A stretch of 64,000 bases of DNA from Alphaproteobacteria bacterium (GTDB lineage: Bacteria; Pseudomonadota; Alphaproteobacteria; CAAHEQ01; UBA3637): the NCBI GenBank assembly GCA_045632845.1, contig JAZQXL010000020.1, forward strand, positions 99,386 through 163,385. The letters run 5' to 3'. The position numbers and the translations under genes are program-made. This document shows positions 19,408-55,226 of this stretch, piece after piece; the first letter of the stretch is position 1; every line of letters starts with the position of its first letter. Below the pieces are notes generated by a model, which was given only the letters and a program-made list of their open reading frames with translations, had not been told where the DNA came from and searched no databases.

Positions 19408-19426
19408 TGTTTTCTCTCTCAAAACA

Positions 19427-19451
19427 AAAAGCCCCGCTCGGGGCTTTTTTT
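19427..19451 (+). terminator. Rho-independent terminator after the ATPase gene
   Basis: aaaagccccgctcggggcttttttttg. Confidence 0.6.
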
Positions 19452-19601
19452 TGTTACAAATAAAATAAAAGAGAGATTAAGATCTCTTTTGTTAATAAAT
19501 TTATTTCTATTTAAAATAAAAAAATCGAAGATTGTTTTTCCCACAGATAAATATCCTGTAACATATGTTTTTTTAACAACCAATCAAAAAGGAAACATAA
19601 A

Positions 19602-20222
19602 ATGATTTACGGATATATCAGAGTTTCAACTGACAAACAAACCACAGAAAACCAAAAATTTGAAATCGAGCAATTTTGTATTCAAAACAAGATTGTTATT
19701 GACAAATGGATAACCGAAACCATTAGCGCAACAAAAGAGTTAAATAAACGAAAACTTGGTACTCTTTTAAGACAAATTAAAAATGACGATATTGTTATTG
19801 CAACAGAATTATCCAGATTAGGTAGAAATCTGCTTCAAGTCATGAGTATTTTACACCACTGTATGAATGTTGGTTGCCAAATTTGGACTATTAAAGACCA
19901 CTATCGACTTGGGAAAACCATAGAATCAAAGGTATTAGCTTTTGCTTTTGGATTAGCCGCAGAAATTGAACGAGATCTTATTTCTCAACGAACTAGCGAA
20001 GCTCTAAAACGATTAAAAACCGAAGGAAAAACTTTGGGGCGTCCCAAAGGAAAAAAGAATCAAAAATGTAAATTGGAAAATAAAAAAAATCAAATTAAAA
20101 ACCTTTTGGAAAAGAAAGTTCCCAGAAACAAAATAGCAAAAACCATAAATGTTGATGTAAAAACATTAAATAAATTTATCGATGATTATAAAAAATATGT
20201 TGTTTTTTCCTTATTTTTATAA
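19602..20222 (+). CDS. Small serine recombinase (resolvase/invertase family)
   Basis: MIYGYIRVSTDKQTTENQ (catalytic Ser in the YxRVSTxxQ motif). LSRLGRN. C-terminal HTH KIAKTINVDVKTLNKFI. 206 aa. Confidence 0.85.
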   Translation: MIYGYIRVSTDKQTTENQKFEIEQFCIQNKIVIDKWITETISATKELNKRKLGTLLRQIKNDDIVIATELSRLGRNLLQVMSILHHCMNVGCQIWTIKDHYRLGKTIESKVLAFAFGLAAEIERDLISQRTSEALKRLKTEGKTLGRPKGKKNQKCKLENKKNQIKNLLEKKVPRNKIAKTINVDVKTLNKFIDDYKKYVVFSLFL

Positions 20223-20225
20223 CAA

Positions 20226-20258
20226 AAAAGCCCCTGACGAGCAGAGGCTTTTTCTTTA
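20226..20258. terminator. Bidirectional terminator between the recombinase gene and tuf
   Basis: aaaaaagcccctgacgagcagaggctttttcttt imperfect hairpin with T-run. Confidence 0.45.
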
Positions 20259-20272
20259 TTTTGCGGCTTTGA

Positions 20273-21463
20273 TTATTCAAAGATTTTTGCAACAACGCCG
20301 GCGCCAACTGTGTGACCACCTTCACGAATAGCAAAACGCAAACCTTCGTCCATAGCTACAGGAACGATCAATGAAACTGTTAATTTAACATTGTCGCCTG
20401 GCATAACCATTTCAACACCTTCAGGTAATTCGATTGTACCTGTAACGTCTGTTGTACGGAAGTAGAATTGTGGGCGATAGTTTGCGAAGAATGGTGTATG
20501 ACGACCACCTTCATCTTTGCTCAACACATAAACTTCTGATTCAAATTTTGTGTGTGGAGTAATTGTTCCTGGAGCAGCCAAAACTTGACCACGTTCAACT
20601 TCGTCACGTTTTGTACCACGGAGAAGAGCACCGATGTTATCACCAGCTTCACCTTGATCCAATAATTTACGGAACATTTCAACGCCTGTACATGTTGTTT
20701 TAGCTGTTGGACGGATACCAACGATTTCAACTTCTTCACCAACTTTTAATACACCGCGTTCTACACGACCTGTAACAACTGTACCACGGCCTGAAATTGA
20801 GAACACGTCTTCGATTGGCATCAAGAATGGTTTGTCTTTTGGACGTTCTGGTTGTGGAATGTATGAGTCAACTGCTTCCATCAATGACAAGATAGCATCA
20901 CGACCGATTGCTGGATCACCATCATCTAATGCAACTTTTGCAGAACCTTTGATAACTGGAATATCATCACCTGGGAATTGGTATGAAGATAACAATTCAC
21001 GGATTTCCATTTCAACTAATTCTAACAATTCAGCATCGTCAACCATGTCAACTTTGTTCATGAAAACAACGATTGCAGGAACGCCGACTTGGCGAGCGAG
21101 CAAGATGTGTTCACGAGTTTGTGGCATAGGACCATCAGCTGAAGAAACAACTAAGATAGCGCCGTCCATTTGAGCAGCACCAGTAATCATGTTTTTAACA
21201 TAGTCAGCGTGGCCAGGGCAGTCAACGTGTGCATAGTGGCGGTTTGCTGTTTCATATTCAACGTGTGATGTTGAAATGGTAATACCGCGTGCGCGTTCTT
21301 CTGGAGCTTTATCGATGTTTGCATAATCAACGAAAGCTGCGCCACCTTTTTCTGCCAATACTTTTGTAATAGCAGCTGTTAATGTTGTTTTACCGTGGTC
21401 AACGTGACCGATCGTACCGATATTGCAGTGCGGTTTTGATCTTTCAAATTTTTCTTTACTCAT
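20273..21463 (-). CDS. tuf: Elongation factor Tu
   Basis: [32 protein letters not shown]...[26 protein letters not shown]. 396 aa. Confidence 0.97.
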
Positions 21464-21525
21464 TATTATTTTCCTTAACTGATCAGTGTTAAAAAATTAA
21501 AATCCCACTATGGGATTTCGTTAAA

Positions 21526-21599
21526 TGGAGCGGGTGAAGGGAATCGAACCCTCGTAGTCAGCTTGGAAGGCTGGAGCTTTACCATTAAGCTACACCCGC
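21526..21599 (-). tRNA. tRNA-Gly (anticodon UCC)
   Basis: Reverse complement GCGGGTGTAGCTTAATGGTAAAGCTCCAGCCTTCCAAGCTGA...GGTTCGATTCCCTTCACCCGCTCCA. Confidence 0.85.
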
Positions 21600-21619
21600 A
21601 CATCAGTCGGGTTCGTCCT

Positions 21620-21705
21620 TGGTGGAAGGGGAAAGATTCGAACTTTCGTAGACATAAGTCGGCAGATTTACAGTCTGCTGCCATTAACCACTCGGCCACC
21701 CTTCC
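21620..21705 (-). tRNA. tRNA-Tyr (anticodon GUA)
   Basis: Reverse complement GGAAGGGTGGCCGAGTGGTTAATGGCAGCAGACTGTAAATCTGC...long variable arm...GTTCGAATCTTTCCCCTTCCACCA. Confidence 0.85.
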
Positions 21706-24469: not shown

Positions 24470-25744
24470 ATGCTTGATATCAAATTTATTCGTGAAAACC
24501 CTGATATTGTCAAAAAAACTTTGGCTGAAAAATGCTTAACATTAGATATTGATGAACTTTTATCGATTGATAAAAAAATCATCCAAATCAAACAATTGAT
24601 GGAAGCTGAATTACAAAAAAGAAATGCTCTTAGCAAAGAAATGCCAAAAGCTTCACCTGAAAGAAAAGAAGAAATCAAAGAACTTTCTAAAAAATCAGGG
24701 CAACAAGCAGCCGCATATGCCGAAGAATTAAAACCTTTAGAAGAACAATTCAAATCAATGATGGGCATGACACCAACTATCCCTGCTCCAGATGTTCCAC
24801 GTGGAACAAGTGAAGAAGAAAACGTTGTCGTTCGCCAAGTTGGCGAAAAACCAACATTCGATTTTGAAATGAAAGACCATGTTGAGTTGATGGATTTGAA
24901 CAACTGGGGTGAATTCAAAAAAATCTCTCAAATTTGCGGCAGCCGCACTGTCGGGATTAAAGGTGAACTTCTTCAATTAGAAATGGCTTTATGGCAATTT
25001 ACTGTTAATAAATTGATGGAAAAAGGCTTTACCGTAATGAGCGTCCCTTCCCTCTCATTTGAAAACGCATTCTATCACACAGGCCACTTCCCATTTGATT
25101 ATGATTCTGTTTACTCTATGCCAAAAGACAACCTTTATTTAGCTGGAACAGCTGAAGTTATTTTAAACAGTATTCACGCAGGCGATATTCTTAAAGAAGC
25201 TGATTTGCCAATTATGTACGCAGGATTCTCTCCTTGTTTCAGACGTGAAGCAGGCGCTGCTGGTAAAGACACAAGAGGACTTATCCGTGTTCACCAATTC
25301 AGCAAAGTTGAACAATACATTATTTGTAAAGCTGAAGTTGCCGAATCAGATAAAATGCATCAATTTATTTTGCAAAATGCTGAGGAAGTTATGCAAGAAA
25401 TGGAAATTCCATATCAAATCATTGCGAACTGCACAGGCGATATGGGTGCGGGCAAATACCGTATGAACGACATTGAAGCTTGGTGTCCAGGTCAAAACCA
25501 ATACAGAGAAACGCACAGCTGTTCTTCTTTATTAGACTGGCAAGCACGTCGAACAAACATCCGCTATCGTGAAGATGAAACAGGCAAAGTTAAATATGCT
25601 TATACATTGAACAATACAGGCCTTGCAACACCACGTGTGTTGGTTGCCTTTATTGAAAATCACCAACAAGCTGATGGATCTGTTCGTATTCCAAAAGCTC
25701 TTCAACCTTATATGGGTGGAAAAACAAAAATCGGTGGAAAATAA
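24470..25744 (+). CDS. serS: Serine--tRNA ligase
   Basis: MLDIKFIRENPDIVKKTLAEK, N-terminal coiled coil, class II motifs (FRREAGAAGKDTRGLIRVHQFSKVE, GLATPRVLVAFIENHQ). Confidence 0.95.
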   Translation: MLDIKFIRENPDIVKKTLAEKCLTLDIDELLSIDKKIIQIKQLMEAELQKRNALSKEMPKASPERKEEIKELSKKSGQQAAAYAEELKPLEEQFKSMMGMTPTIPAPDVPRGTSEEENVVVRQVGEKPTFDFEMKDHVELMDLNNWGEFKKISQICGSRTVGIKGELLQLEMALWQFTVNKLMEKGFTVMSVPSLSFENAFYHTGHFPFDYDSVYSMPKDNLYLAGTAEVILNSIHAGDILKEADLPIMYAGFSPCFRREAGAAGKDTRGLIRVHQFSKVEQYIICKAEVAESDKMHQFILQNAEEVMQEMEIPYQIIANCTGDMGAGKYRMNDIEAWCPGQNQYRETHSCSSLLDWQARRTNIRYREDETGKVKYAYTLNNTGLATPRVLVAFIENHQQADGSVRIPKALQPYMGGKTKIGGK

Positions 25745-38770: not shown

Positions 38771-41215
38771 TTATGCTTGTTCTAGATATGCTTGAACCAA
38801 TGCATCTGTATCTTGAACCTGTTTAGCCAATCTTTCAGCCAAAATAACACTTTTGTTACCAGAAGAGTAAATTTTTAACAAAGGCCCTAAACCACTTAAA
38901 TCAACATCTAAAATAACAGATTCGTGAATTGCAGGACGAGAAACCAAAATAGCATACTTTCTATCTGCAAACTCTTTTCCCAAAATAAAGTTCATTTCTC
39001 TTGGCGTTAAATTCCATGTTGCATAGTCTGATGGATTTGCTTGAGGGTTTCTAAAGAAAATAACTGTTTGACATTGACCACGAATAACATCACCCAAACC
39101 ATTATCATCCAAAAACCTTGGTTGTTGGAAAGCACACAAATAAGCTTGTCGTTTTTTACGACCTTCACGAAGACCAACAATAAAACTATCTTTAAACATT
39201 GGATGCTCTAACATTGGAGCAGTTTCGTCAATCATAATCAAACTTGGTGTACCCATAACAGTAGATAACGTTTGAATACGATACATTACATAACTAATAA
39301 CAGCAGGCGCTAAAACACTATCTTGGAAAATAGTTGTAAAGTCAAAAGCCATATATCTGCTAGACAAATCCAAATTATCCGTTAACGAGTTGAAAACACG
39401 ACCATATTGATCATCATTAACCCATCTAAACAATTCTCTTCTCATATAACCATTTGGTGCAAAACAACTTTTATATAAGTTTTTCAACAACCGTTCATCT
39501 GGTCTTAAATATTCAAATGCTGTTGTTACTGCACGCGCAATTTCTTGTTCTGAAATAGCATCTGTACCCCCTGTAATATCACGCATCCATGTTCTTAAAA
39601 AGGCACGTGTATCAGAGGAATCAGGAACAGCAAAAGGATTTAAAGATACAGATTCTTCCCCCCCATCAAATCGAACGTATGGAGCACCTTGCATTAATGC
39701 AAAAACCTTAGCACCATTATTTCTATCAAAGAAATAAGTTCTCAAATCTGGAATACGCATAGATTGCCCTGCAAGGAAGGAGAAAAGCGTTGTTTTACCT
39801 TGTCCAGTTGGACCAATTAATGCGGTATGAGCTACAGCATATTGTTCTTCAGATACGTGAAATTGGAAAGCATATGCCGTTCCTGTAATCGTTCTAAAAT
39901 AAGATAAAGGCATTGGACCCCAATCTGATTTTCTTCGACCTTCAGCTGTTTTATCAATACATACAGCACAAGCAACAACACGTGACAAATATAAGAATGT
40001 TCTTGGATAAATTTCATATGTTGGGAATTGTGCAAAAAATGTTGCTTGAGCAGACCACCCTTCACGAACAGGTGTCACATTGTGCAAACGACAGATTTTT
40101 TCAATCTCTTCTTGCCCGAATTTCAACTCTTCTTTGCTTTCGCCAAAAATAAAGACAGACATTGCATATTCATTTAATGTTTGACCATCAGCATCTGATT
40201 GATCCATCCATTCTAAAGCGGTATTATACTGGGCTTGAACGTTTGTTGAAAACGTTGTTAACCAAGCCATTCTTCGTTGTTGCATCAAGAGCATATTTGC
40301 TTTAATCATAGGGATAGCTTTGATATTGTGAACCAAGGTAACTTCACAATCAATACTGATAATATCAGCAATCATTTGTTCATCCATAAAATCCCCTGGT
40401 TTGCGAATACCAATGCATATACCATATTTAATAATATCGCCTGAAAAGAATTTAATAATCCCTTCATCTTTTGTAAAATGGATATAATCTGCTGTTAATA
40501 AAGCATTTAAAGTATCTCCTTCCTCACCACCAATTCTTGGTTGAGGAACAGATAATGGACTTGCTAATTGTGAAAAAAGCCAAAAAGGACTTTTATCATT
40601 ATGCTTATGAGGTGTTTTTTCTGAAATCAAAACAGGCTCATACACATCCAAAATAGAGGTTAAAGCCAATGTTGCTTGTTGCAAATCATCTAGAGCATTT
40701 TTTCGATCATTAATAGAAATAACAATATAATGTTTATTTCTAAAAACACGTTGCATATTCTCCATCCATTTTGTTGATACTTTTTTGAGAAGCTTGCTAT
40801 CCCTGTGTTCCCCCATATCGTTTAAAGAAATACGCTCACGGATTGTAATTACTCTTGAAACAACCTCTAAAGAAGCCATAGAGTCAATCCATTGTTTTCT
40901 TGCTTGAGCCAAAGCCAACCTTTCTGGCCCTGTTAAAAGAGTTGTATCTGCTCCACGTACCTCAAAAACACGTGCAAGAGAACCATTTTTTAAATGGATC
41001 GTTGCACCATCTGCATCCAACCTACTAAAAGGCAAGAAATCAGAAACCCTTGTTTCTCTAGGTTTTGGTAAAATAATGTCCCCTAATTTTGTCACAAAAA
41101 CAGACATAATAAACATTGCTGCACAAACACCAATTAGTGCAACCAATGTTGAAAAAGAGGATGCCCCCTGTGCTAACAGGTCAAAAATATTCATGTCAAA
41201 ATGGATATCATTCAT
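38771..41215 (-). CDS. virB4: Type IV secretion system ATPase VirB4/TrbE/CagE family (orphan)
   Basis: 814 aa. N-terminal TM helix. Walker A TALIGPTGQGKTTLFSF. Walker B-like SLIMIDETAPML. C-terminal motifs GLREGRKKRQAYLCAFQQP (VirB4 RK/Q motifs). Confidence 0.85.
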   Translation of the reverse strand: MNDIHFDMNIFDLLAQGASSFSTLVALIGVCAAMFIMSVFVTKLGDIILPKPRETRVSDFLPFSRLDADGATIHLKNGSLARVFEVRGADTTLLTGPERLALAQARKQWIDSMASLEVVSRVITIRERISLNDMGEHRDSKLLKKVSTKWMENMQRVFRNKHYIVISINDRKNALDDLQQATLALTSILDVYEPVLISEKTPHKHNDKSPFWLFSQLASPLSVPQPRIGGEEGDTLNALLTADYIHFTKDEGIIKFFSGDIIKYGICIGIRKPGDFMDEQMIADIISIDCEVTLVHNIKAIPMIKANMLLMQQRRMAWLTTFSTNVQAQYNTALEWMDQSDADGQTLNEYAMSVFIFGESKEELKFGQEEIEKICRLHNVTPVREGWSAQATFFAQFPTYEIYPRTFLYLSRVVACAVCIDKTAEGRRKSDWGPMPLSYFRTITGTAYAFQFHVSEEQYAVAHTALIGPTGQGKTTLFSFLAGQSMRIPDLRTYFFDRNNGAKVFALMQGAPYVRFDGGEESVSLNPFAVPDSSDTRAFLRTWMRDITGGTDAISEQEIARAVTTAFEYLRPDERLLKNLYKSCFAPNGYMRRELFRWVNDDQYGRVFNSLTDNLDLSSRYMAFDFTTIFQDSVLAPAVISYVMYRIQTLSTVMGTPSLIMIDETAPMLEHPMFKDSFIVGLREGRKKRQAYLCAFQQPRFLDDNGLGDVIRGQCQTVIFFRNPQANPSDYATWNLTPREMNFILGKEFADRKYAILVSRPAIHESVILDVDLSGLGPLLKIYSSGNKSVILAERLAKQVQDTDALVQAYLEQA

Positions 41216-44972: not shown

Positions 44973-45059
44973 GCTTTAAAACGCTTTTTAAGCTAAAAAA
45001 ACCATCAGACAGACTCTACTGGTGGTTTTTTTATATCTAAAATAAAAAATATTCATCAA

Positions 45060-45075
45060 TGTTTCACGTGAAACA
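45060..45075. promoter_or_regulatory. parS site (TGTTTCACGTGAAACA)
   Basis: Perfect 16-bp ParB-binding palindrome. Confidence 0.85.
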
Positions 45076-45090
45076 TTATACATAAAAAAG

Positions 45091-45099
45091 TTATCCACA
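45091..45099. promoter_or_regulatory. DnaA box TTATCCACA
   Basis: Perfect consensus 9-mer within the parS cluster downstream of parB. Confidence 0.5.
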
Positions 45100-45144
45100 G
45101 GCCCTGATGGTAATTAAATTTTTGTTTAACAAATAAAAAAAGAA

Positions 45145-45160
45145 TGTTTCACGTGAAACA
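45145..45160. promoter_or_regulatory. parS site inside a 30-bp extended palindrome (aagaatGTTTCACGTGAAACattctt)
   Basis: Perfect parS. The extended arms are identical to the copy at 47720. Confidence 0.85.
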
Positions 45161-45186
45161 TTCTTTTTTTTGTAATCGATTCTAAT

Positions 45187-45202
45187 TGTTTCACGTGGAA
45201 CA
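45187..45202. promoter_or_regulatory. parS-like site (TGTTTCACGTGGAACA, 1 mismatch)
   Basis: Sequence match. Confidence 0.7.
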
Positions 45203-45221
45203 TTTTTAATTTAGATTGAGT

Positions 45222-45237
45222 TGTTTCACGTGAAACA
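45222..45237. promoter_or_regulatory. parS site
   Basis: Perfect TGTTTCACGTGAAACA. Confidence 0.85.
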
Positions 45238-45240
45238 AAA

Positions 45241-45266
45241 AAAGAGCGATTTCTCGCTCTTTTTTA
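45241..45266 (-). terminator. Terminator after parB
   Basis: aaagagcgatttctcgctctttttt. Confidence 0.55.
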
Positions 45267-46154
45267 TTCAATAGGACCGCCTAAACTTAAGCGCTGAAGA
45301 ATTAAATCTAACTTATCCAAATCTAATCCAGAAATAACAACGGACCCTGTTAAACCATTCCATTTAATAGAAACAGATGTATTTAAAACACTGCTCAATT
45401 CTTCTTCTAATGTCAAAATATCACCATCTTTTTCTGGTTTTGGCTTAGCTTTTGATATTGTCTTTTTGGAGGCTAATTTTTCAGTTTGACGAACGCTATA
45501 GCCTTTTTTCAAAACTTCAGTGGCTAATTCAACAGGATTTTTTGCCGTTAAAAGAGCACGTGCATGGCCAACAGTTAATTCTTTTTTCTCAACCATCCCT
45601 TTGATTTCATCTGGCAAATCAATCAAACGCATCATATTTGCCAAATGACTACGGCTTTTACCAATCACTTTTGAAAGCTCTTCCTGAGTGTATTTAAACT
45701 CTTCTAAGAGGCGTTTATAAGCTTCAGCCTCTTCTAATGGGTTTAAATCTTCACGTTGAAGGTTTTCAATTAAAGCAACTTCTAAAGCATCTTTATCTGA
45801 AAAATCTTTAATAATTGCTGGAATTTCCTTAAGACCGGCCATTTTTGATGCTCTAAAGCGACGTTCTCCAGCAATCAATTCATATCCACCTTCTTTTTTA
45901 GGATCATTTCGAACCAAAAGAGGTTGTAAAACGCCTTTTTCTTTAATTGATAATACCAAATCAGCCAAAGCTTCTGTTGAAAAAACACGACGTGGTTGAT
46001 ATGGACTTGGAACAATATTGTCGATATTAATTAATGTTACACCATCTGAAGAAGCTTTTTCAGCACCTTTTTTTTCAGATACCTCAACGATATCGTCATC
46101 ATCTTCCCCCATCAAAGCACTTAAACCGCGCCCTAAACGCACATTTTTATCCAT
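45264..46154 (-). CDS. parB: Chromosome partitioning protein ParB
   Basis: ParB box GERRFRAS. HTH region. 296 aa. Follows parA with a 8-bp overlap. Confidence 0.92.
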   Translation of the reverse strand: MDKNVRLGRGLSALMGEDDDDIVEVSEKKGAEKASSDGVTLINIDNIVPSPYQPRRVFSTEALADLVLSIKEKGVLQPLLVRNDPKKEGGYELIAGERRFRASKMAGLKEIPAIIKDFSDKDALEVALIENLQREDLNPLEEAEAYKRLLEEFKYTQEELSKVIGKSRSHLANMMRLIDLPDEIKGMVEKKELTVGHARALLTAKNPVELATEVLKKGYSVRQTEKLASKKTISKAKPKPEKDGDILTLEEELSSVLNTSVSIKWNGLTGSVVISGLDLDKLDLILQRLSLGGPIE

Positions 46155-46932
46155 GGATTAAAAACTCCCTTTCTCTTTTTAAAACTTCTGCAGCTAATTT
46201 AATATAGCTTTGGGCCCCTGCACTCTTATAATCATACAACATAACAGGTATGCCATGTGATGGAGCCTCAGGAATCCGCACATTGCGTGGAATAAGTGTA
46301 TCATAAACTTGATCACCAAAAAACTCTTTAACATCACTTACAATAGACTTAGAAAGATTTGATCTTCCATCAAACATAGTCAAAACAATACCATGAACCT
46401 TCAATGATGGATTAAAATTCTTTTTAATTTTATTAATTGTTTTCATCAAATCTGCAACACCTTCAAGTGCTAAATACTCACATTGAACAGGAATAATCAC
46501 ACAATCAGAGGCTGCCAAAGCATTCATTGTTAACAAACCAACTGCAGGTGGACAATCAATAAAAATATAATCAAAATCATCAGCTTGTTCTAATGCTTTT
46601 TTTAAGTAAAATTGAGGTTTATCAGAACCAGCCAATTCAATATCGACGCCAAGCAATTCCTTACTTGCTGGCAATACATACAAATAAGGGATATCCGTTG
46701 CACAGATACAATCTTTTAAATTTTCACCGCCTACAAATACAGTATATGAATTCTTACTTCCCAAGCGTCTTTTGGCCCCAACACTAACTGTTGCGTTACC
46801 TTGTGGATCTAAATCAACAACCAAAACTTTCTTTTCTACAGCAGCCAAAGCTGTTGCTAAATTAATTGTTGTTGTTGTTTTACCGACACCACCTTTTTGA
46901 TTAGAAACAGAAAAAATTCGAGCTTTTTTCAT
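46147..46932 (-). CDS. parA: Chromosome partitioning ATPase ParA (Soj)
   Basis: Deviant Walker A NQKGGVGKTTTTINLA. 261 aa. Confidence 0.93.
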   Translation of the reverse strand: MKKARIFSVSNQKGGVGKTTTTINLATALAAVEKKVLVVDLDPQGNATVSVGAKRRLGSKNSYTVFVGGENLKDCICATDIPYLYVLPASKELLGVDIELAGSDKPQFYLKKALEQADDFDYIFIDCPPAVGLLTMNALAASDCVIIPVQCEYLALEGVADLMKTINKIKKNFNPSLKVHGIVLTMFDGRSNLSKSIVSDVKEFFGDQVYDTLIPRNVRIPEAPSHGIPVMLYDYKSAGAQSYIKLAAEVLKREREFLIHG

Positions 46933-47540
46933 AAATACTCAACCTCCGTTATTTTTAAAATACAACCATTTTTGTTTGTTTTACTTGTTATTTTTTCTTT
47001 TTTAAACCGAAAAGAAACTTCCTTTAACTCTGAATCAACAGACTCCCCTTTTAAAAGAAGGTATATTGTATCAGATTTATAAAAAGAAGCACCAAAATTC
47101 AGCAAAAGAGCTACAGAACCCAATGCGCGTGATGAAATAATATCAGCTTTAATATCTTTAATTTCTTCAATGCGCGCATTCAAAACTTCTAAATTTAAGC
47201 CTAAAACTCTGGAAACCTCTTTTAAAAAGACTGTTTTTTTATTATCACTTTCAATTAAAATTATTCTTTGTAATCCACCACTTAGCACTTTGTTTAAAAT
47301 AGCAACCACAACAGCAGGAAAACCACCACCAGAGCCCAAATCAACCAATGTTTTAGCATTTTTATTAATTTCAAAATAAAGTTGTGCAGAATCCAAAATA
47401 TGGCGCTCCCACAAAGAGTTCAACTCTTTGTTTGATACCAAATTCACAGCTTTTTGCCACTTTTTAACAAGCGCGACATATTGATTTAATAAATCCTGAG
47501 CTGGAAAAATTTGTTGTTCTAATTGTTTCACGTGAAACAT
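46929..47540 (-). CDS. rsmG: 16S rRNA (guanine527-N7)-methyltransferase RsmG (GidB)
   Basis: SAM motif LVDLGSGGGFPAVVVAI. Position upstream of parAB. Confidence 0.88.
   Translation of the reverse strand: MFHVKQLEQQIFPAQDLLNQYVALVKKWQKAVNLVSNKELNSLWERHILDSAQLYFEINKNAKTLVDLGSGGGFPAVVVAILNKVLSGGLQRIILIESDNKKTVFLKEVSRVLGLNLEVLNARIEEIKDIKADIISSRALGSVALLLNFGASFYKSDTIYLLLKGESVDSELKEVSFRFKKEKITSKTNKNGCILKITEVEYL
47524..47539. promoter_or_regulatory. parS site overlapping the rsmG start codon
   Basis: Perfect TGTTTCACGTGAAACA. The ATG of rsmG (CAT on +) lies inside/adjacent to it. Confidence 0.8.
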
Positions 47541-47627
47541 CCCCTTATTATTATCTTAACTAAACATTAACTTTTTTAAAAAAGGAATGCAAGTATTTTT
47601 TATAAAAAAAGAAAAAATACCACCTAA

Positions 47628-47643
47628 TGTTTCACGTGAAACA
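47628..47643. promoter_or_regulatory. parS site
   Basis: Perfect match. Confidence 0.85.
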
Positions 47644-47719
47644 CTGAAAATTAATAAAAAAGAATAAAATATTCTTATTTTTTTCTGATTACTTAGTGTT
47701 TCACATAATAAAAAAAGAA

Positions 47720-47735
47720 TGTTTCACGTGAAACA
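47720..47735. promoter_or_regulatory. parS site in extended palindrome (preceded by half-site TGTTTCAC at 47698)
   Basis: Perfect match. Flanks identical to 45139-45166. Confidence 0.85.
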
Positions 47736-47787
47736 TTCTTTTTTTAACGACAATTTTAATGACACATTTTAAAGATCATTTTTTTTA

Positions 47788-47803
47788 TGTTCCACGTGAA
47801 ACA
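47788..47803. promoter_or_regulatory. parS-like site (TGTTCCACGTGAAACA, 1 mismatch)
   Basis: Sequence match. Confidence 0.7.
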
Positions 47804-47841
47804 TAAAAAAAACACCCATTAAAGGGTGTTTTTTAACATTT

Positions 47842-48285
47842 TTAATTAAATATAAACTGAATACTGTTTAAATCATCGCAATCTTTTTTAACAAAACTAT
47901 TAATCTTAACTGTAACAGCTTCGGGTATAGCATTAACCAACATATCGCAGCGATCTTTATCAACATTTTTTAATTCAATAAAAAATTGATCATTATTAAT
48001 TCCGCCAATATTCCAGTCAAAAATTCCAAAATCATACTTGAAATCTTCTTTTTTCAAATTCATATAGTTACCCATAGATAACATACGAATGTCATGAACC
48101 AACAATTGAAGTTGTGCAATCAAAGAAACATCACTTACAACAGTTTTTTTAGCAAATTTAACCGTTTGTGAAACATTTTGAGTTTGTTGTGCAGCTTCTT
48201 TAACCGAGCCCATCGAACTCATTAATAGAAAAAAAAGCCCAACTCCCCCTAATAAGAAAACCAACAGTTTCATTCTATCCCCCAA
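47842..48285 (-). CDS. Hypothetical secreted protein
   Basis: Signal-peptide-like N-terminus LLVFLLGGVGLFFLLMSSMGS. 147 aa. Two Cys. Overlaps the dnaQ stop. Confidence 0.5.
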   Translation of the reverse strand: MGDRMKLLVFLLGGVGLFFLLMSSMGSVKEAAQQTQNVSQTVKFAKKTVVSDVSLIAQLQLLVHDIRMLSMGNYMNLKKEDFKYDFGIFDWNIGGINNDQFFIELKNVDKDRCDMLVNAIPEAVTVKINSFVKKDCDDLNSIQFIFN

Positions 48286-48965
48286 ATATTGTTTTTTATT
48301 TTTTTAACAAAATCAGCATGTTGCTCAATATCTTCACTCGATGCAGAAAAAGAACGAGGCTCCCTATATTCTTTTGCAAGTGTTTTAACATCCCTCAACA
48401 CTTGTTGCACCTGCTTACTCTCACTCTTTTTTTCTAAAACCAACCCAGGTTGACGTCCACCAATTAACTCTAAATAAACTTCAGCGAGCAATTCACTATC
48501 AAGCAAAGCTCCGTGAAACGTACGTGCAGAATTATCAATGTGAAATTTCTTACAAAGCTCGTTTAAATTAACTCGTGAACCAGGAAACCGTTTTTTCGCC
48601 AAAACAACAGTATCAATCACCCTATCAAAGGATAAAGGCTCCTTTCCAACCCATGAAAGTTCCGCATTCAAAAATTTCATATCAAAGGGAGCATTATGGG
48701 CAATTAACGTTGAATCTGAGCCAATAAATGTCAAAAAATCATCCGCAATTTCTCGAAATGTAGGCTTGTCAGACAAAAATTCTTCTGTCAAACCGTGTAC
48801 AGCGACGACTTCCTCGCTCATAGAGCGCTCAGGATTGATATATTGATGATAGACATTTCCTGTTGGAACGTGATTAACTAATTCAACACACCCAATTTCA
48901 ACAATACGATCACCTTGAAAAGGATCTAAACCAGTTGTTTCAGTATCAAAAACTATTTCTCTCAT
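48270..48965 (-). CDS. dnaQ: DNA polymerase III epsilon subunit (3'-5' exonuclease)
   Basis: Exo I MREIVFDTETTGLDP. Exo II and Exo III (HGALLDSELLAEVY). Confidence 0.9.
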   Translation of the reverse strand: MREIVFDTETTGLDPFQGDRIVEIGCVELVNHVPTGNVYHQYINPERSMSEEVVAVHGLTEEFLSDKPTFREIADDFLTFIGSDSTLIAHNAPFDMKFLNAELSWVGKEPLSFDRVIDTVVLAKKRFPGSRVNLNELCKKFHIDNSARTFHGALLDSELLAEVYLELIGGRQPGLVLEKKSESKQVQQVLRDVKTLAKEYREPRSFSASSEDIEQHADFVKKIKNNIWGIE

Positions 48966-49733
48966 TTACAAAACTCTAAAAGTTATAAACATATGCTATT
49001 ATAATTGAAAAGAATTTAGATATCAAGTAGAAAAAACAGACTCGGGATAAAATGAAAAAAACATAGATATTCAATAGGTTAAGACTGTTTCTAAAAAGCA
49101 CATTTTTAATAAAAGTAATCAAAAACATCCAAAACGACGTAGTATAGAGAAATCAAGGCTTTCCTGTGGATAAAAAAAATTCCTGTGGATAAGTGAGGAT
49201 TCAAAAAATAATTTTAATTTTATACCGAAACACACTTATTTTATTCACACCCCAAAACTACAAATAAGTTAAAATAAAAAGAATCGGAAAAGTAAGATTC
49301 GAACTTGAAAATATCCGAGTCGGGACTATATCAAAAAACAGTCAATAAAAATAAAAAAAAGTTATGCACAATATCCACAATATATACTAATAAAAAATTA
49401 TTTATTTTAAATAAGATTAGAATGGTTTTATGTGAATTCTTTCACACATCTGTTTTGAAAAAAATGCTTGCGATTTAAAAAAAAGATTGTTACGTTAAAA
49501 TTATCGAAGATGAAAAAACAATCTTCCTCTCTTCACTCCTTGTTTTTTCAAAATCGTTTTTCTGGATAACAAAAAATCTTAACTTTGTGATTATTTTTAC
49601 ACCAAAAGAGATACCTCTTTATTTTTATGTTTTGCAAAAAGAAGAGGTTAAAAAATTAAATTTATAAGAACAGAGTGAATGTTAAAAAATGTTTGAAAGA
49701 ATATAATTTAGTGTTTGAATGATATATTAAAAT
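48966..49733. promoter_or_regulatory. Candidate chromosomal replication origin (oriC): AT-rich intergenic region with clustered DnaA boxes
   Basis: Two perfect TGTGGATAA boxes (49166-49174, 49184-49192), each inside a 13-bp direct repeat ttcctgtggataa. Near-consensus boxes TTATGCACA/ATATCCACA (49362-49379) and TCTGGATAA (49561-49569). Long A/T runs. No ORF of 60 aa or more. ~1.2 kb from the parS cluster. Confidence 0.5.
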
Positions 49734-50657
49734 TTAGCCTTCTTTATTTAATAAATATTTTTCAACACTAAGAGCTGCTATTGCACCACTACCTGCTGAT
49801 ATAATAGCTTGCTTGTATTTTTCTTCTTGCACATCTCCGCAGGCAAAAACACCTTCTATAGATGTTTCCATTGTTCGTTTGCTTGTTTTTATATATCCAT
49901 GAGCTGTTGTCTGTAGTTGATTGTTTAAAAAGGCGGTATTCGGAGCTGTTCCAATAGCTTCAAACACACCATTTATAGACAATTGAAAAATCTCATTGCT
50001 TTTTAAGTTCCTCAGTTTTATTGATGAAAGTTTATTTTCTCCAATAAATTCAATAACTTCAGTATTGTATAAAATTTCAATTTTGGGGTTGTGGATAACT
50101 TTTTCTTGTATTTTTGTTTCCCCTTTAAAGGATTTGTTTTTGTTAATTAAAAAAACTTTTTCAGCCACATTTGCTAAAAATTGGGCTTCATAAAGAGCGC
50201 TATTTCCACCCCCAATAACAGCGACAATTTTATTTTTATAAAAAAATCCATCACAGGTTGCGCAGATAGAAATACCCTTCCCTTTAAATTTATCTTCTCC
50301 AAGCGATTTTAACCACTTTGGAGAGGCCCCAGTAGCAATAATAATTGTATCCGCAGTTCCTTTCAAAGCTCCTCTAGATTCGAATTTAAATGGCTTTTTT
50401 GATAAATCTAAAGTAACAATCTCATCTTGGATAACATTTACACCTACTTTTGTTGCCTGTGAGTGCATTTTTTCCATCAATTCAACACCTGTTATGAGTT
50501 CAAAACCAGGGAAGTTTTCAACCTCGTTTGTTCTTGTTAGTTGTCCACCAATGGTGCTTCCTGTTATAAGGGTTGTCTGTATCCCAGCTCTTGTTGTGTA
50601 TATTCCAGCTGTATAACCAGCAGGGCCTGATCCAATAATTAAAACAGATGTATGCAT
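49734..50657 (-). CDS. trxB: Thioredoxin-disulfide reductase
   Basis: FAD site VLIIGSGPAGYTAG. Redox-active CATCDG. NADPH site GGGNSA. Start at the MHTS Met. Confidence 0.9.
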   Translation of the reverse strand: MHTSVLIIGSGPAGYTAGIYTTRAGIQTTLITGSTIGGQLTRTNEVENFPGFELITGVELMEKMHSQATKVGVNVIQDEIVTLDLSKKPFKFESRGALKGTADTIIIATGASPKWLKSLGEDKFKGKGISICATCDGFFYKNKIVAVIGGGNSALYEAQFLANVAEKVFLINKNKSFKGETKIQEKVIHNPKIEILYNTEVIEFIGENKLSSIKLRNLKSNEIFQLSINGVFEAIGTAPNTAFLNNQLQTTAHGYIKTSKRTMETSIEGVFACGDVQEEKYKQAIISAGSGAIAALSVEKYLLNKEG

Positions 50658-50740
50658 TGTATCCCTCATAAAAAAAACTCCCTCTACAAATAATATCAAA
50701 AAAGATACCATTTCAAGAGGGGGTTTTTAATCAATAAATA

Positions 50741-51217
50741 TTAAATAAATTGAACGTTTAAAATTTCGTAAGATTTTTCACCTTTTGGTGTGACAACATC
50801 AACGAAATCCCCTTTATTTTTTCCAATTAATGCTCTTGCGATTGGAGATAATAAAGAAATGTGGCCTTTTTCAAGATTTGCTTCATATTGGCCAACAATT
50901 TGATATGAATGTTGAGAGCCTGTTTCTGAATCTTCCAACGTGACTGTGGCCCCAAAAAGAACTTTATCCCCTGAAAGAGATTTAATGTCAATAACTTGTG
51001 CTCTTGCAAGTGCACTTTCTAATTCCATAATACGGCCTTCATTAAAACTTTGTTGTTCACGAGCTGAATGGTATTCTGCATTTTCTGATAAATCGCCATG
51101 ACCACGAGCCTCTTCAATAGCTGCAACAATACGAGGACGTTCTTCAAATTTTAAACGTTTTAACTCTGTGGATAAATTTTCATAACCATTTGATGTCATT
51201 GGTATTTTTTCTTCCAT
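50741..51217 (-). CDS. greA: Transcription elongation factor GreA
   Basis: [23 protein letters not shown]...[16 protein letters not shown]. Confidence 0.92.
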
Positions 51218-51348
51218 AATACACCCTTTCTTTAATTTTTTTATTAAAAAATAAAACTACGGTTGTTCAGCCGTAGCTTCTTAAACTCCTATCTGATAAT
51301 TGAATTATATGTTTTTTTTATTTAAAAAGCAAGTGTTTAAATAATTTT

Positions 51349-52161
51349 TTATTTTGAACAATTAAAATCCTCGATTTGTTGTTCTGGATCAAGTCGTGTT
51401 CCATACCATGTTATAGTGTAATGAAGGTGTGGTCCAGTTGATCTTCCTGTGTTTCCAATTTCTGCAATTATGTCTCCTTTTTTTACAACAGCTCCTTCTT
51501 TTACTGAAATTTTATTTAAATGTGAATAACTTGAGAATAAGCCATATCCATGATTAATTAAGAGTGTTTTTCCAGACAAAAACATGTCGTTATGAGCAAG
51601 TGCAACAACACCATCTGCTGGTGCATATAAAGGTGTTCCAATAGGTGCTGCATAATCTACACCGCTGTGACCTGCTTTTTTAATATTATTTAAAATTCTT
51701 CTTGCACCAAAAGGGCTTGAAATACGTTTAAATTTTTTAACAGGTCTTTCAAAACATGTTGGGAAAAAAGATGTATTCATTCTACCTCTTGCTTCTCTAA
51801 GGAGTTGATTTTCTTGTTGAATTCGTTTTGTGTTTTTGTTTGAAGGGGTTACTTTTTCTGGTTGAAGACCTGTAACAATCTCTTCTTTCCACTTTCTTTT
51901 TTCGACAGAAAACTTTTTAATTTCTTTTTCCCCGTTTGAATGAATAAGTGTGAGATTTAATATTGTTGAATCTTGTGGAAGACCAAAGAAAAATTTCCCC
52001 TTTTTTGTTGGTATAATTTCAGTTGAGCCAATCAAAAGTTTTTCATCTTTGTTCAGTTGACCATAAATAAGAGCACCTTCCTGAATTTTTGATGTTATTT
52101 CAAAAGAAAAAACTGAAAAACTATAAAAACATCCAATTAAAAGAGGTAGGTATTTTTTCAT
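51349..52161 (-). CDS. M23-family (LytM-type) peptidase, secreted
   Basis: Signal peptide. HSGVDYAAPIGTPLYAPADG and GNTGRSTGPHLHY (HxxxD and HxH motifs). Confidence 0.8.
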   Translation of the reverse strand: MKKYLPLLIGCFYSFSVFSFEITSKIQEGALIYGQLNKDEKLLIGSTEIIPTKKGKFFFGLPQDSTILNLTLIHSNGEKEIKKFSVEKRKWKEEIVTGLQPEKVTPSNKNTKRIQQENQLLREARGRMNTSFFPTCFERPVKKFKRISSPFGARRILNNIKKAGHSGVDYAAPIGTPLYAPADGVVALAHNDMFLSGKTLLINHGYGLFSSYSHLNKISVKEGAVVKKGDIIAEIGNTGRSTGPHLHYTITWYGTRLDPEQQIEDFNCSK

Positions 52162-53463
52162 CTATATATCCTTAAACAAATTGATTTGATGTGATTCTGG
52201 GGTAATTTTTTTCTTTTTCACGGATGTTGATGTTATTGATTTATTTGTTGGTGAAACAAGAACATTTTTATCTGAAAATTTGATAAAGAAATTTTCTTTT
52301 GTTTCAGCTATTGTCCCTGAAGTGATAACTTTTCCATCTGTATCTGTTACTAAAGAGAAGCCTCTTTTTAAAATTTCATTATATGAATAAGAAGATAGTA
52401 ATTTTGATACAAAAAATAATTTATTTTCAGTTGTTGTGAAGAATGTTTTTAATGCATTTTTGAACCGTTCGGTCTTGTCATCCAATTTTTCAAAAAACAA
52501 ATTGATTAATTCATTTAATTTTGGCATAGACCTTGATAATGATTCTAATTTTAATTTACTTTCATTCAAAAAACGGTATAACGCATCTATATTTCTGGAA
52601 GAAAGCTGTGTTAATGTAGAAATCAACTCACTTCGAACAGGTACGGCTTTTTCAGCAGCACCTGTTGGTGTTGGAGCTCTTAAATCTGATGCAAAATCAA
52701 TTAAAGTTGTATCTGTTTCATGTCCAACAGCGGAGATGATTGGAATTTTTGAAGCAGCCGTTGCTCTTACGACAATTTCTTCATTAAAACACCATAAATC
52801 TTCAAAACTACCGCCCCCTCTTGCAACAATGAGAACATCAGGTTTTTTAATATGTTTATTTTTAAGTGTAAGACCTTCTTTTGGAATATTATTAAAACCA
52901 TTAATAGCGGCCGCTATTTGTTCTGCAGCGCCCTCGCCCTGCACAAGAACCGGCCATAAATAAACTTCTCTTGGAAAGCGTTCATTTAACCTGTGCATAA
53001 TATCTCTTATTACAGCGCCACTTGGGCTTGTAACAACACCAATAGTTTCTGGAAGATAAGGTATTTTTTTCTTTTTAGAAGCATCAAAAAGACCTTCTTT
53101 TTCGAGTTTTTCTTTTCGTTCTGCCAGCAATTTTAACAAAGCGCCAATACCTGCAGGCTCAGCTTTATCAACAATCATTTGATAATTTGATCGACCCGGG
53201 TATGTGGATAACTTTCCTGTACAGACAATTTCTAAACCATTTTCAAGTGATGCTAATGTTGTTTTATCTCGTCCACGCCAACAAACAGCTGATAAAACAG
53301 AATCGTTGTCTTTTAGTGAAAAATAAATATGTCCAGAGGGAGCTTTTTTAACACCTACAACCTCACCTTTAACCCGAATATCGCTAAAAACTTGTTCAAC
53401 ACAGCTTTTAAGTGAAAGAGATATTTCTGTAACTGATAAAATTGGTTTGTTTTCTATTTCCAT
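52162..53463 (-). CDS. xseA: Exodeoxyribonuclease VII large subunit
   Basis: OB-fold N-terminus LSVTEISLSLKSCVEQVFSDIRVKGEV. ARGGGSFEDLWCFNEE motif. Confidence 0.88.
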   Translation of the reverse strand: MEIENKPILSVTEISLSLKSCVEQVFSDIRVKGEVVGVKKAPSGHIYFSLKDNDSVLSAVCWRGRDKTTLASLENGLEIVCTGKLSTYPGRSNYQMIVDKAEPAGIGALLKLLAERKEKLEKEGLFDASKKKKIPYLPETIGVVTSPSGAVIRDIMHRLNERFPREVYLWPVLVQGEGAAEQIAAAINGFNNIPKEGLTLKNKHIKKPDVLIVARGGGSFEDLWCFNEEIVVRATAASKIPIISAVGHETDTTLIDFASDLRAPTPTGAAEKAVPVRSELISTLTQLSSRNIDALYRFLNESKLKLESLSRSMPKLNELINLFFEKLDDKTERFKNALKTFFTTTENKLFFVSKLLSSYSYNEILKRGFSLVTDTDGKVITSGTIAETKENFFIKFSDKNVLVSPTNKSITSTSVKKKKITPESHQINLFKDI

Positions 53464-53924
53464 TATTGTTTCCGTTTTGCTTTAAAAAAATCAGTTAAAA
53501 GTTTTCCATTTTCATCAGCATTTATACCGCCTTGAATAACTGGTTTGTGATGTGTTTGTTTGTGTTTAAAAACCTCTGCTCCTTGTAAAATAGCCCCTGT
53601 TTTTGGATCAAATGCACCAAAATAAATAGCATCTAATCGTGCTAATGACAAAGCCCCGGCGCACATAACGCAAGGTTCTAATGTTACAAAAAGAGAATAT
53701 CCCGTCAGTCTTTTGGTTTTTAATTTTTCACAAGCACGTTGAATAGCTAAAATTTCAGCATGCGCTAAAGGGTTTTTTGTTTGTTCAGTTTCGTTATAAG
53801 CTGTGGATATAATTTCGTATGTTTTAGAGTGATACACAACTGCTCCTACAGGAACTTCATCTTCTTTGAAAGCTTTTTGCGCTTGCTCATAAGCTGTTTG
53901 TAAAATCGTTTCGTTTGGTTTCAT
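53463..53924 (-). CDS. tadA: tRNA-specific adenosine deaminase
   Basis: CMP/dCMP deaminase zinc motifs HAEILAI...PCVMCAGAL. Confidence 0.88.
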   Translation of the reverse strand: MKPNETILQTAYEQAQKAFKEDEVPVGAVVYHSKTYEIISTAYNETEQTKNPLAHAEILAIQRACEKLKTKRLTGYSLFVTLEPCVMCAGALSLARLDAIYFGAFDPKTGAILQGAEVFKHKQTHHKPVIQGGINADENGKLLTDFFKAKRKQ

Positions 53925-53967
53925 TTTTTACTTTCATCTTTTTGTTTTTTAATATAATATACTAATT

Positions 53968-54681
53968 ATGACAGAAAAGAAAGAGAGAATTGCAAAAATA
54001 ATGGCTTCTGCGGGATTATGTTCACGTAGAACTGCCGAACAATGGATTTTAGATGGACGTGTTAAGGTAAATGGAGTTGTTCTTGAAACACCAGCATTTA
54101 CCGTTTCATCAACAGATGTCGTTCTGGTTGATGATAAACCTATTGCTCAAAAGCAAGAAACAAGGTTGTGGTGTTATCACAAACCTACTGGGTTGGTTAC
54201 AACACATAAAGATCCACAAGGAAGACCAACAGTTTTTGATTCGTTGCCTAAATATTTACCACGTGTTATTTCGGTTGGTCGTTTAGACTTAAATTCTGAA
54301 GGATTGTTATTATTAACAACTGATGGTGGTTTGGCGCGTGAATTAGAGCACCCATCAAAAGGATGGAAACGTAGATATCGTGTTCGTATTCATGGTGTTT
54401 TAACGCCAGAAATGCAAAAACGCCTTTCCAAAGGGATTACTATTGATGGAATTAGATATGCTCCTTGTGAAACTGTTGTTGAGCAAGTTAAAGGAACAAA
54501 TAGTTGGGTTTCAATTACTCTAACAGAGGGAAAAAACAGAGAAATTCGAAAATTAATGGCTTTCTTTGGATTAGAAGTAACAAGATTGATTCGTGTTTCC
54601 TATGGACCTTTTCAATTAGGTAATTTGGAAAAAGGTGAAGTTCGAGAAGTTTCTAAAAAAATGATGAAAGAATTGTTATGA
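53968..54681 (+). CDS. RsuA-family pseudouridine synthase with S4 domain (RluB-like)
   Basis: S4 RIAKIMASAGLCSRRTAEQWILDGRVKVNG. Catalytic VGRLDLNSEGLLLLT. Confidence 0.82.
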   Translation: MTEKKERIAKIMASAGLCSRRTAEQWILDGRVKVNGVVLETPAFTVSSTDVVLVDDKPIAQKQETRLWCYHKPTGLVTTHKDPQGRPTVFDSLPKYLPRVISVGRLDLNSEGLLLLTTDGGLARELEHPSKGWKRRYRVRIHGVLTPEMQKRLSKGITIDGIRYAPCETVVEQVKGTNSWVSITLTEGKNREIRKLMAFFGLEVTRLIRVSYGPFQLGNLEKGEVREVSKKMMKELL

Positions 54682-55226
54682 GGGTTATTTCTGGGCAATA
54701 TCGTGGCAAAAAATTGTTAGCTGCTGATGAAGAAATCACAAGACCAACCTCTGATCGAGCAAAAGAAGGTCTTTTTAATATTTTAAACAATTATCTTTTG
54801 AAAAATTCAAAATCCTGGCAAGAAATTTTCTTTTGTGATGTTTTTGCTGGTTCTGGTGCGATTGGAATTGAGGCTGTTTCACGTGGAACAAAAAATGTTT
54901 TTCTTTTTGAAAACAATAAGTTAGCATTGAAAATGATCCGTGAAAATTCAAAAGGAATGCCTGTTCAAATCATTGAAACAGATGCTTGTTTTCCTCCAAC
55001 TGCAAAAAACAAAATGGATATTATATTTTTTGATGCCCCTTATGGAAAGGGTTTGTGGCAAAAATCATTGGAGGCTTTTTATAAACAAGGGTGGATAGAT
55101 TCTAACACATTGGTTATTGTTGAAATTGATAAAAAGATAAAAGAAGAAATCCCCTCCTCTTTTATTTGTACAAGGGAGCAAGAATATGGACGTAATTTAT
55201 TTTTGTTCTTACAATTGGGGGATTGA
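54678..55226 (+). CDS. rsmD: 16S rRNA (guanine966-N2)-methyltransferase RsmD
   Basis: MRVISGQYRGKKL...DVFAGSGAIGIEAVSRG...FFDAPY. Confidence 0.85.
   Translation: MRVISGQYRGKKLLAADEEITRPTSDRAKEGLFNILNNYLLKNSKSWQEIFFCDVFAGSGAIGIEAVSRGTKNVFLFENNKLALKMIRENSKGMPVQIIETDACFPPTAKNKMDIIFFDAPYGKGLWQKSLEAFYKQGWIDSNTLVIVEIDKKIKEEIPSSFICTREQEYGRNLFLFLQLGD

Follow-up and report, generated by a model that had tools for sequence, protein, structure and literature searches.

The non-coding gap between dnaQ and trxB as the probable chromosomal replication origin of an uncultured low-GC alphaproteobacterium

The DNA analysed here is a single 64-kb window (64,000 nucleotides, 33% G+C) of the genome of an uncultured alphaproteobacterium, and the element in question is the non-coding gap between dnaQ (48270-48965, minus strand) and trxB (49734-50711, minus strand), which we consider the probable chromosomal origin of replication, oriC. 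The gap extends from 48966 to 49733, and its 768 bp agree with the gene-free region of about 770 bp given in a preliminary description of this DNA: it contains no tRNA detectable by ARAGORN and no Rfam family at the gathering threshold, and its only open reading frames (ORFs), of 50 and 57 aa, have no conserved counterpart in relatives. On the left side, dnaQ is followed by a conserved ORF of 147 aa and by rsmG, parA and parB (45264-47540, minus strand), for which NCBIfam, used here for gene names, agrees with the names given earlier. The whole of this arm (45264-48965, minus strand) is co-oriented with a fork leaving the gap leftwards. On the right side, trxB is followed on the minus strand by greA, an M23 peptidase gene, xseA and tadA, and a plus-strand run with rluB, rsmD and tkt begins at 53968. 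Protein families were scanned for 52 of the 54 ORFs in the window, and neither hemE nor dnaA was found among them; the gap is flanked by dnaQ and trxB, with no adjacent hemE, as had been noted previously.

Four perfect and three one-mismatch DnaA boxes lie within the gap. Perfect TGTGGATAA boxes occupy positions 49165-49173 and 49184-49192, each within a 13-mer TTCCTGTGGATAA (49161-73 and 49180-92), and form a distal pair (49161-49192, minus strand) of two perfect TTATCCACA boxes. These boxes and their 13-bp direct repeats are as reported in the preliminary description, except that the spacing is 19 bp from start to start, with 10 bp between the boxes, and not 18 bp. Near-consensus boxes had also been proposed besides this pair, and two further perfect and three one-mismatch boxes were indeed found. 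A middle box on the plus strand (49241-49249), TTATTCACA, matches TTATNCACA perfectly. The proximal tandem boxes (49362-49379, plus strand) consist of TTATGCACA, with no mismatch to TTATNCACA, and an abutting ATATCCACA in the same orientation, with one mismatch. The one-mismatch boxes start at 48983, 49371 and 49561; the last of them, TTATCCAGA (49561-49569, minus strand), is an outlying box in sequence specific to the window genome, and its membership in the origin is uncertain. The number of perfect boxes (4 observed vs 0.04 expected) was not reached in any of 20,000 dinucleotide shuffles, and the number obtained with one mismatch allowed (7 observed vs 1.2 expected) was not reached in any of 3,000. 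No other 768-bp stretch of the window matches this box count, and every other intergenic region contains at most one perfect box.

Over the window as a whole, perfect TTATNCACA boxes are 4.5-fold over-represented (20 vs 4.4 expected). Five of them are located inside trxB, greA, the M23 peptidase gene and xseA, the latter with two (50090, 51167, 51521, 52992 and 53203), and share one orientation, on the coding strand; three others lie inside mutS (36008, 36182 and 36570). The corresponding coding stretches of two relatives (L001 and L004) are devoid of boxes. This excess in coding DNA could reflect titration of DnaA or merely a codon and skew effect.

Directly abutting the proximal tandem boxes (box 49371-79) is a predicted DNA-unwinding element (49380-49419, plus strand), formed by the spacer ATAT, then ATA CTA ATA, and then A/T tracts. 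This segment is 95% AT and, with a free energy (dG) of -35 against a mean of -48.6, is the least stable of the 40-mers sampled across the 64 kb, in good agreement with the earlier suggestion that A/T tracts of the region could serve for unwinding. Its layout resembles that of the basal unwinding system (BUS), whose published rules call for a DnaA box, or a tandem pair separated by at most 3 bp and with a limited number of mismatches, followed on the proper side and strand, within 16 nt of the box, by at least three consecutive NAN triplets, 3'-GAT-5' being preferred, with a spacer from upstream box to first trio that is most often 13 nt (PMC8287927). The module of B. subtilis reads 3'-AATAGGTGT TTAGGTGT CCGG GATGATAAT…-5', with trios GATGAT… (PMC8287927). 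In the window, the plus strand reads TTATGCACA ATATCCACA ATAT ATA CTA ATA AAA…, and the bottom strand shows the DnaA-trio-like sequence 3'-…TATA TAT GAT TAT-5'. The two boxes at 49362-49379 are in tandem and in the same orientation, with a gap of 0, and 3'-TAT GAT TAT-5' begins at a distance of 4 nt from the proximal box and 13 nt from the upstream one, so that side, strand and the 13-nt offset of the trios are the same as in B. subtilis. In the alignment set used here, composed of the window and relatives L001-L004 (70-77% DnaQ identity), 19 of the 30 triplets in the predicted frame are NTN and nine are CTA, as compared with 10/30 and 8/30 NTN and no CTA in the other two frames. In-phase CTA triplets are present in all five genomes, and L003 has four consecutive ones.

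The raw cumulative GC skew of the window has its minimum near 54 kb (53-54 kb), not at 49.3 kb. The five genes from trxB to tadA (49734-53924) run leftward, head-on to the predicted rightward fork, and it is because of them that the minimum is displaced, since gene strand contributes to skew; for this reason, plus-strand skew was computed gene by gene at third codon positions, for G vs C (GC3) and for A vs T (AT3). To the left of 48965, GC3 skew is negative in 38 of 40 genes, mostly between -0.2 and -0.7 and on both coding strands, the two exceptions being tuf (+0.48) and another gene at +0.015. From trxB to tadA it ranges from 0 to +0.23, as in genes of the right arm, and from 53968 onwards it lies between +0.05 and +0.51. 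The sign of AT3 skew flips at the same point as GC3, the dnaQ/trxB boundary. A logistic change-point model was fitted to the counts of G3/C3 and A3/T3, taking replication arm and gene strand as covariates; its best breakpoint for GC3, for AT3 and for all-position AT skew fell between dnaQ and trxB, with log-likelihood differences (dLL) of -3 to -5 at the adjacent gene boundaries in all three measures. For GC3, moving the breakpoint one gene to the left of dnaQ gave a dLL of -12, breakpoints next to tadA/rluB (~53.9 kb) gave values below -15, and the model without a breakpoint gave -99.8. The change is from negative to positive (C-rich to G-rich on the plus strand), which corresponds to the polarity of an origin and not of a terminus. 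The raw cumulative skew was thus discarded as a locator of the origin, being an artefact of the five head-on genes that the third-position analysis resolves.

In five relatives (L001 and L003-L006), the GC3 switch likewise lies in the gap preceding dnaQ or no more than one gene away from it. The head-on orientation relative to the origin is also found in L001, L003 and L004, indicating that it is old and not the product of a recent inversion.

Conservation of the locus was examined in relatives identified through DnaQ. The window DnaQ shows no more than 77% identity to proteins from metagenome-assembled genomes (MAGs) of uncultured Alphaproteobacteria such as SIG53 and UBA7488, and six relatives (L001-L006, 62-77% identity) share the order dnaQ-(hyp)-rsmG-parA-parB, and in all of them perfect boxes are clustered in the intergenic DNA preceding dnaQ. 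Among 78 scorable dnaQ loci, only these six have boxes within 600 bp of dnaQ. In the five aligned genomes the elements follow a common order towards dnaQ: the AT-rich segment with in-phase CTA, the abutting boxes (49379-49362), a T-tract with TTGAC (49361-49341), a GANTC site (49321-49317), a second GANTC site, the middle box (49249-49241) and the 19-bp-spaced pair (49192-49165). Motif columns are conserved at 0.89-0.98, compared with 0.65 for the remaining aligned core. The distal pair and its 19-bp spacing are kept in L001-L004 with a column conservation of 0.96-0.98, and the proximal tandem pair is kept in the same four relatives at 0.89. L002 and L004 have a box located much like the middle box of the window, and L003, by our reading, has a one-mismatch version of it. 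The 147-aa ORF (47842-48285, minus strand), which overlaps the 3' end of dnaQ, has no Pfam or NCBIfam match and recurs at the same position in L001, L002 and L004 with about 32% identity.

On the far side of the gap the neighbouring gene varies: cysS in L001-L004 (L001:1991-3385, L002:3538-4941, L003:4675-6066 and L004:8034-9428), located between trxB and the origin in L001 and L003, rho in L005 and L006, and trxB in the window. No cysS gene is present anywhere in the window, and tblastn gave no match to cysS or rho remnants at E < 1 in the gap or the window, in a very permissive run that returned mostly noise. The trxB-proximal 300 bp of the gap (49440-49733) are specific to the window, with no homology in relatives and none detected to anything else. 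Searches of wider collections added little: the conserved core pattern gave 0 matches in metagenomes, a DnaQ-based metagenome scan returned relatives at 59% identity or less only and was uninformative, and an exact-protein look-up of the window DnaQ yielded no record.

Eight parS sites, perfect or one-mismatch copies of TGTTTCACGTGAAACA, lie in two clusters 1.2-3.9 kb from the gap, so that the origin-proximal parS and parAB-rsmG context noted in the preliminary description was confirmed. Cluster 1 (47524-47803; sites at 47524, 47628, 47720 and 47788) is located mostly between rsmG and the 147-aa ORF, and its site at 47524 overlaps the start of rsmG. Cluster 2 (45060-45237; sites at 45060, 45145, 45187 and 45222) lies between gatB and parB and is accompanied by one DnaA box at 45091. 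Across the window, 11 parS-like matches were found vs 0.85 expected. Outside the clusters, parS-like sites occur at 24793-24808 (2 mismatches) and 54875-54890 (1 mismatch), one of them in rsmD, 5 kb to the right of the predicted origin.

Candidate CcrM methylation sites form a further cluster within the gap (49281-49322), with GAATC at 49281, GATTC at 49296 and GAGTC at 49317. The gap contains five GANTC sites vs 1.7 expected (P=0.03), a density of 6.5 per kb compared with 2.2-2.8 per kb elsewhere, and pooling over seven genomes gave 17 sites vs 7.6 expected (P=0.002). The site at 49316-49322 (CGAGTCG) is kept in position, with a variable central base and invariant flanks, and a second conserved GANTC lies about 36 nt away. 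On the window plus strand the conserved site reads CGAGTCT in L002 and either CGAGTCG or CGATTCG in the other four genomes, which can be summarized as CGAKTCK. The motif preferred by GcrA is YGAKTCK (PMC4647560), and the conserved site fits it in all five genomes, an observation that we regard as a lead and not as a finding. At 17-18 nt from this site lies the conserved T-tract with TTGAC (49341-49361, minus strand; CTTTTTTTTATTTTTATTGAC; column conservation 0.89), which may serve as a promoter inside the origin or as a site for protein binding. The combination TTGAC-N17/18-(C/A)GANTCG (49316-49345 in the window, with TTGAC … CGACTCG on the minus strand) falls within the origin core and was found only in the window and in L001-L004.

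One of the five GANTC sites is included in the motif gattcgaac (49296-49304), which had been taken for a possible tRNA fragment at 49290-49335. The motif is present, within a 17-nt insertion specific to the window genome, but nothing tRNA-like was found around it: ARAGORN detected none, and Rfam at E<=10 returned four chance-level matches, no tRNA among them.

Altogether, these data argue strongly that the dnaQ-trxB gap is the chromosomal oriC, with a conserved core at about 49160-49420, and we hold this assignment to be highly likely. It is supported by the box cluster, the GC3/AT3 switch, the unwinding element, the BUS-like layout, the conservation upstream of dnaQ, and the neighbouring parS sites and parAB-rsmG genes. 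The box cluster also keeps its place beside dnaQ although the gene across the gap changes, and dnaQ and parAB belong to a published origin cluster, which adds to the case. The motifs with their statistics and conservation, the location of the least stable segment and the switch in composition are direct observations, and together they supply the sequence-level hallmarks of an origin: a box cluster, an adjacent AT-rich element, a switch with origin polarity and a conserved architecture. The probable oriC of the preliminary description is therefore borne out by the switch at the gap, the least stable DNA beside the tandem pair, the conserved architecture and the skew in relatives. The origin is very probably of the ordinary DnaA type, in a trimmed form of the usual alphaproteobacterial neighbourhood.

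From this layout we infer DnaA binding, unwinding, looping, methylation and firing at the gap. DnaA, encoded outside the window, would fill the high-affinity boxes, and the pair at 49362-49379 would position an ATP-DnaA oligomer to extend across the 4-nt spacer onto 3'-TAT GAT TAT-5' and to melt the AT-rich segment 49380-49419. The distal pair (49165-49192) and the middle box at 49241 would raise the local concentration of DnaA, probably by looping, as in the two-subregion model of B. subtilis incC. Forks would then exit in both directions, and ParB, loaded at the two parS clusters 1.2-3.9 kb left of the gap, would serve to segregate the origin. Through the conserved GANTC sites, firing may be tied to methylation by CcrM.

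It has to be noted that several observations weigh against placing the origin in this gap. Apart from the minimum of the raw skew near 54 kb, the all-position GC skew has its best breakpoint one or two genes further right (50.7-51.3 kb), with a dLL of -4.5 for dnaQ/trxB; this offset, like that of the raw skew, is explained by the head-on genes at 49734-53924, yet it is a discrepancy. The trio run of the window is minimal, with three triplets and one GAT, and by itself could be a chance product of AT-rich DNA. In addition, the BUS calls for a short GC-rich spacer between boxes and trios, whereas that of the window is ATAT; the spacers of L001-L004 are GGTT, GACA, AACA and GGGT. No CtrA consensus TTAA-N7-TTAA is present in the gap or in six related gaps (the whole window has 2 vs 9.4 expected), and a consensus scan, the only kind made, gave no match to the IHF consensus WATCAANNNNTTR in any of the seven gaps. 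Finally, the case for an origin is drawn from sequence, and a second skew switch or a stronger box cluster could conceivably lie beyond the 64 kb, for instance next to dnaA.

A more specific proposal is put forward as speculative and rather unlikely. The clade might carry a stripped-down alphaproteobacterial origin, with CtrA/IHF control and the hemE arm lost, in which initiation would be gated by a methylation-sensitive promoter of the GcrA/sigma-70 type within oriC, TTGAC-N17/18-(C/A)GANTCG, whose transcription or hemimethylated state would time DnaA-dependent unwinding at the BUS-like module.

Three other explanations of the locus were weighed. The box cluster might represent a DnaA-controlled dnaQ promoter region or a titrating locus of the datA/DARS type, the true unwinding site being elsewhere. 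It always travels with the 5' end of dnaQ, and a good sigma-70-like candidate promoter for this gene (TTGATA-17-TATAAT; 48998-49026, minus strand; 11 of 12 positions, a consensus match only) lies about 140 bp from the distal boxes and about 33 nt upstream of the dnaQ start codon, where it sets the dnaQ-side limit of the origin; moreover, boxes are in excess window-wide, so not every box marks an origin. Against this, the compositional switch maps to the gap, and in five relatives to the gap or within one gene of it, the least stable DNA lies against a tandem pair that is oriented and phased as in an unwinding module, and the other non-coding stretches of the credible change-point interval have no boxes. 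We therefore regard a purely regulatory or titrating cluster as very unlikely, although regulatory and origin roles are compatible and not mutually exclusive.

A slimmer chance still is given to an origin that lies nearby but in another gap: one of the parS-bearing gaps (47541-47841 and 44973-45263) or the divergent tadA/rluB gap (53925-53967). The latter is favoured by the raw skew minimum at 53-54 kb and by the flip of gene orientation at 53968, and the all-position GC skew favours 50.7-51.3 kb. However, the tadA/rluB gap is only 43 bp long, and the trxB-greA and greA-M23 gaps measure 29 and 131 bp; the parS gaps have 0 and 1 perfect boxes. Furthermore, the GC3 likelihood drops both beside tadA/rluB and one gene left of dnaQ, by the amounts given above, and the genes at 49734-53924 have a right-arm-like GC3 skew, whereas nearly all left-arm genes of this strand have negative values. 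Least probable of all is a relic, either an ancestral origin or the scar of a rearrangement, in which boxes and skew have persisted while initiation now takes place elsewhere, for example near dnaA: the lineage-specific 300 bp on the trxB side and the loss of cysS relative to L001-L003 do point to recent rearrangement at the locus, and dnaA is missing from the ORFs scanned, but all motif blocks are intact and visibly constrained across five genomes, the third-position skew, which tracks the long-term direction of replication, still switches at the gap, the parS/ParAB system is adjacent, and a dnaA gene distant from oriC is normal in Alphaproteobacteria.

Some further features of the window were recorded. 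A simple scan for an intrinsic trxB terminator found none; a weak hairpin with a U-run (49602-49648, minus strand), 90-130 nt past the trxB stop, was not significant when compared with shuffles (z = -1.4). At 18181-21705, genes for a T2SSE/VirB11-like ATPase and a serine resolvase lie beside tuf and tRNA-Gly/Tyr, and a VirB4/TrbE-like ATPase is encoded at 38771-41215; these genes are possibly what is left of a conjugative or type IV secretion element.

Placing the origin in the dnaQ-trxB gap would fix the replichore layout of a low-GC alphaproteobacterial lineage that is uncultured and lacks an experimental system, and would help to estimate growth rates from metagenomic coverage and to check assemblies. 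For comparative purposes, it also contributes an alphaproteobacterial case of a BUS-like unwinding module that lacks CtrA sites. An origin of this familiar type should hold nothing surprising for the specialist.

Comparison with known origins places the gap among them. The incC region of B. subtilis comprises DnaA-boxes 6 and 7, DnaA-trios, an AT-rich region and distal boxes (PMC6669920, PMC8287927), and its second box subregion raises the DnaA concentration (PMC6669920). The window shares with the BUS of this bacterium the abutting boxes of the same orientation, the 4-nt spacer, the 13-nt offset, the in-phase 5'-CTA-3' (3'-GAT-5') and the A/T-rich DNA, as well as a second box subregion about 180-200 bp away. 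The predicted module of the window differs in having only three consecutive NAN, with one GAT, and an ATAT spacer, and its origin is not beside dnaA.

In Caulobacter crescentus, the experimentally defined Cori lies between hemE and CC0001 and contains five CtrA sites and an IHF site (PMC1914354). The gap resembles it in combining an intergenic DnaA-box cluster with an AT-rich region at the skew switch, with parAB nearby. Cori contains GANTC sites too; those of the gap are candidate methylation sites. Unlike Cori, the gap lacks TTAA-N7-TTAA and the IHF consensus, its boxes are the canonical TTATCCACA, and its flanks are dnaQ and trxB and not hemE and COG1806 (CC0001/RP001). The predicted origins of Wolbachia and other Anaplasmataceae likewise keep one classical flank and have the other swapped by rearrangement (PMC1914354), but they retain hemE together with CtrA and IHF sites, whereas the window retains the dnaQ arm and lacks both types of site.

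In gene order, the gap can be compared with the origin predicted for Azospirillum sp. B510 and for Magnetospirillum AMB-1, with the cluster rho-hyp-hemH-hemE / ori / hyp-maf-aroE-coaE-dnaQ … parA parB (PMC2818188). In both cases one arm carries dnaQ, followed further downstream by parA and parB, and the origin is at the GC-skew shift. The window differs in lacking COG1806, maf, aroE and coaE between origin and dnaQ, in having rsmG-parA-parB only 1.4 kb beyond dnaQ, and in that the hemE/hemH/rho arm is replaced by xseA-M23-greA-trxB, pointing toward the origin. The rearranged neighbourhood suspected in the preliminary description thus applies to the hemE/rho arm, but not to dnaQ and the downstream parAB, which belong to a known origin cluster (PMC2818188). 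Intermediate layouts link the two arrangements: more distant low-GC MAGs (L011, L020, L041, L079, L012 and L062) have rho / boxes / coaE-dnaQ, and L005 and L006 have rho / boxes / dnaQ. The classical neighbourhood would accordingly have been eroded stepwise, from hemE… / ori / …coaE-dnaQ through rho / ori / coaE-dnaQ and rho / ori / dnaQ to cysS or trxB / ori / dnaQ, and the window, with its dnaQ arm kept and its hemE/rho arm replaced, stands at the end of this reduction series.

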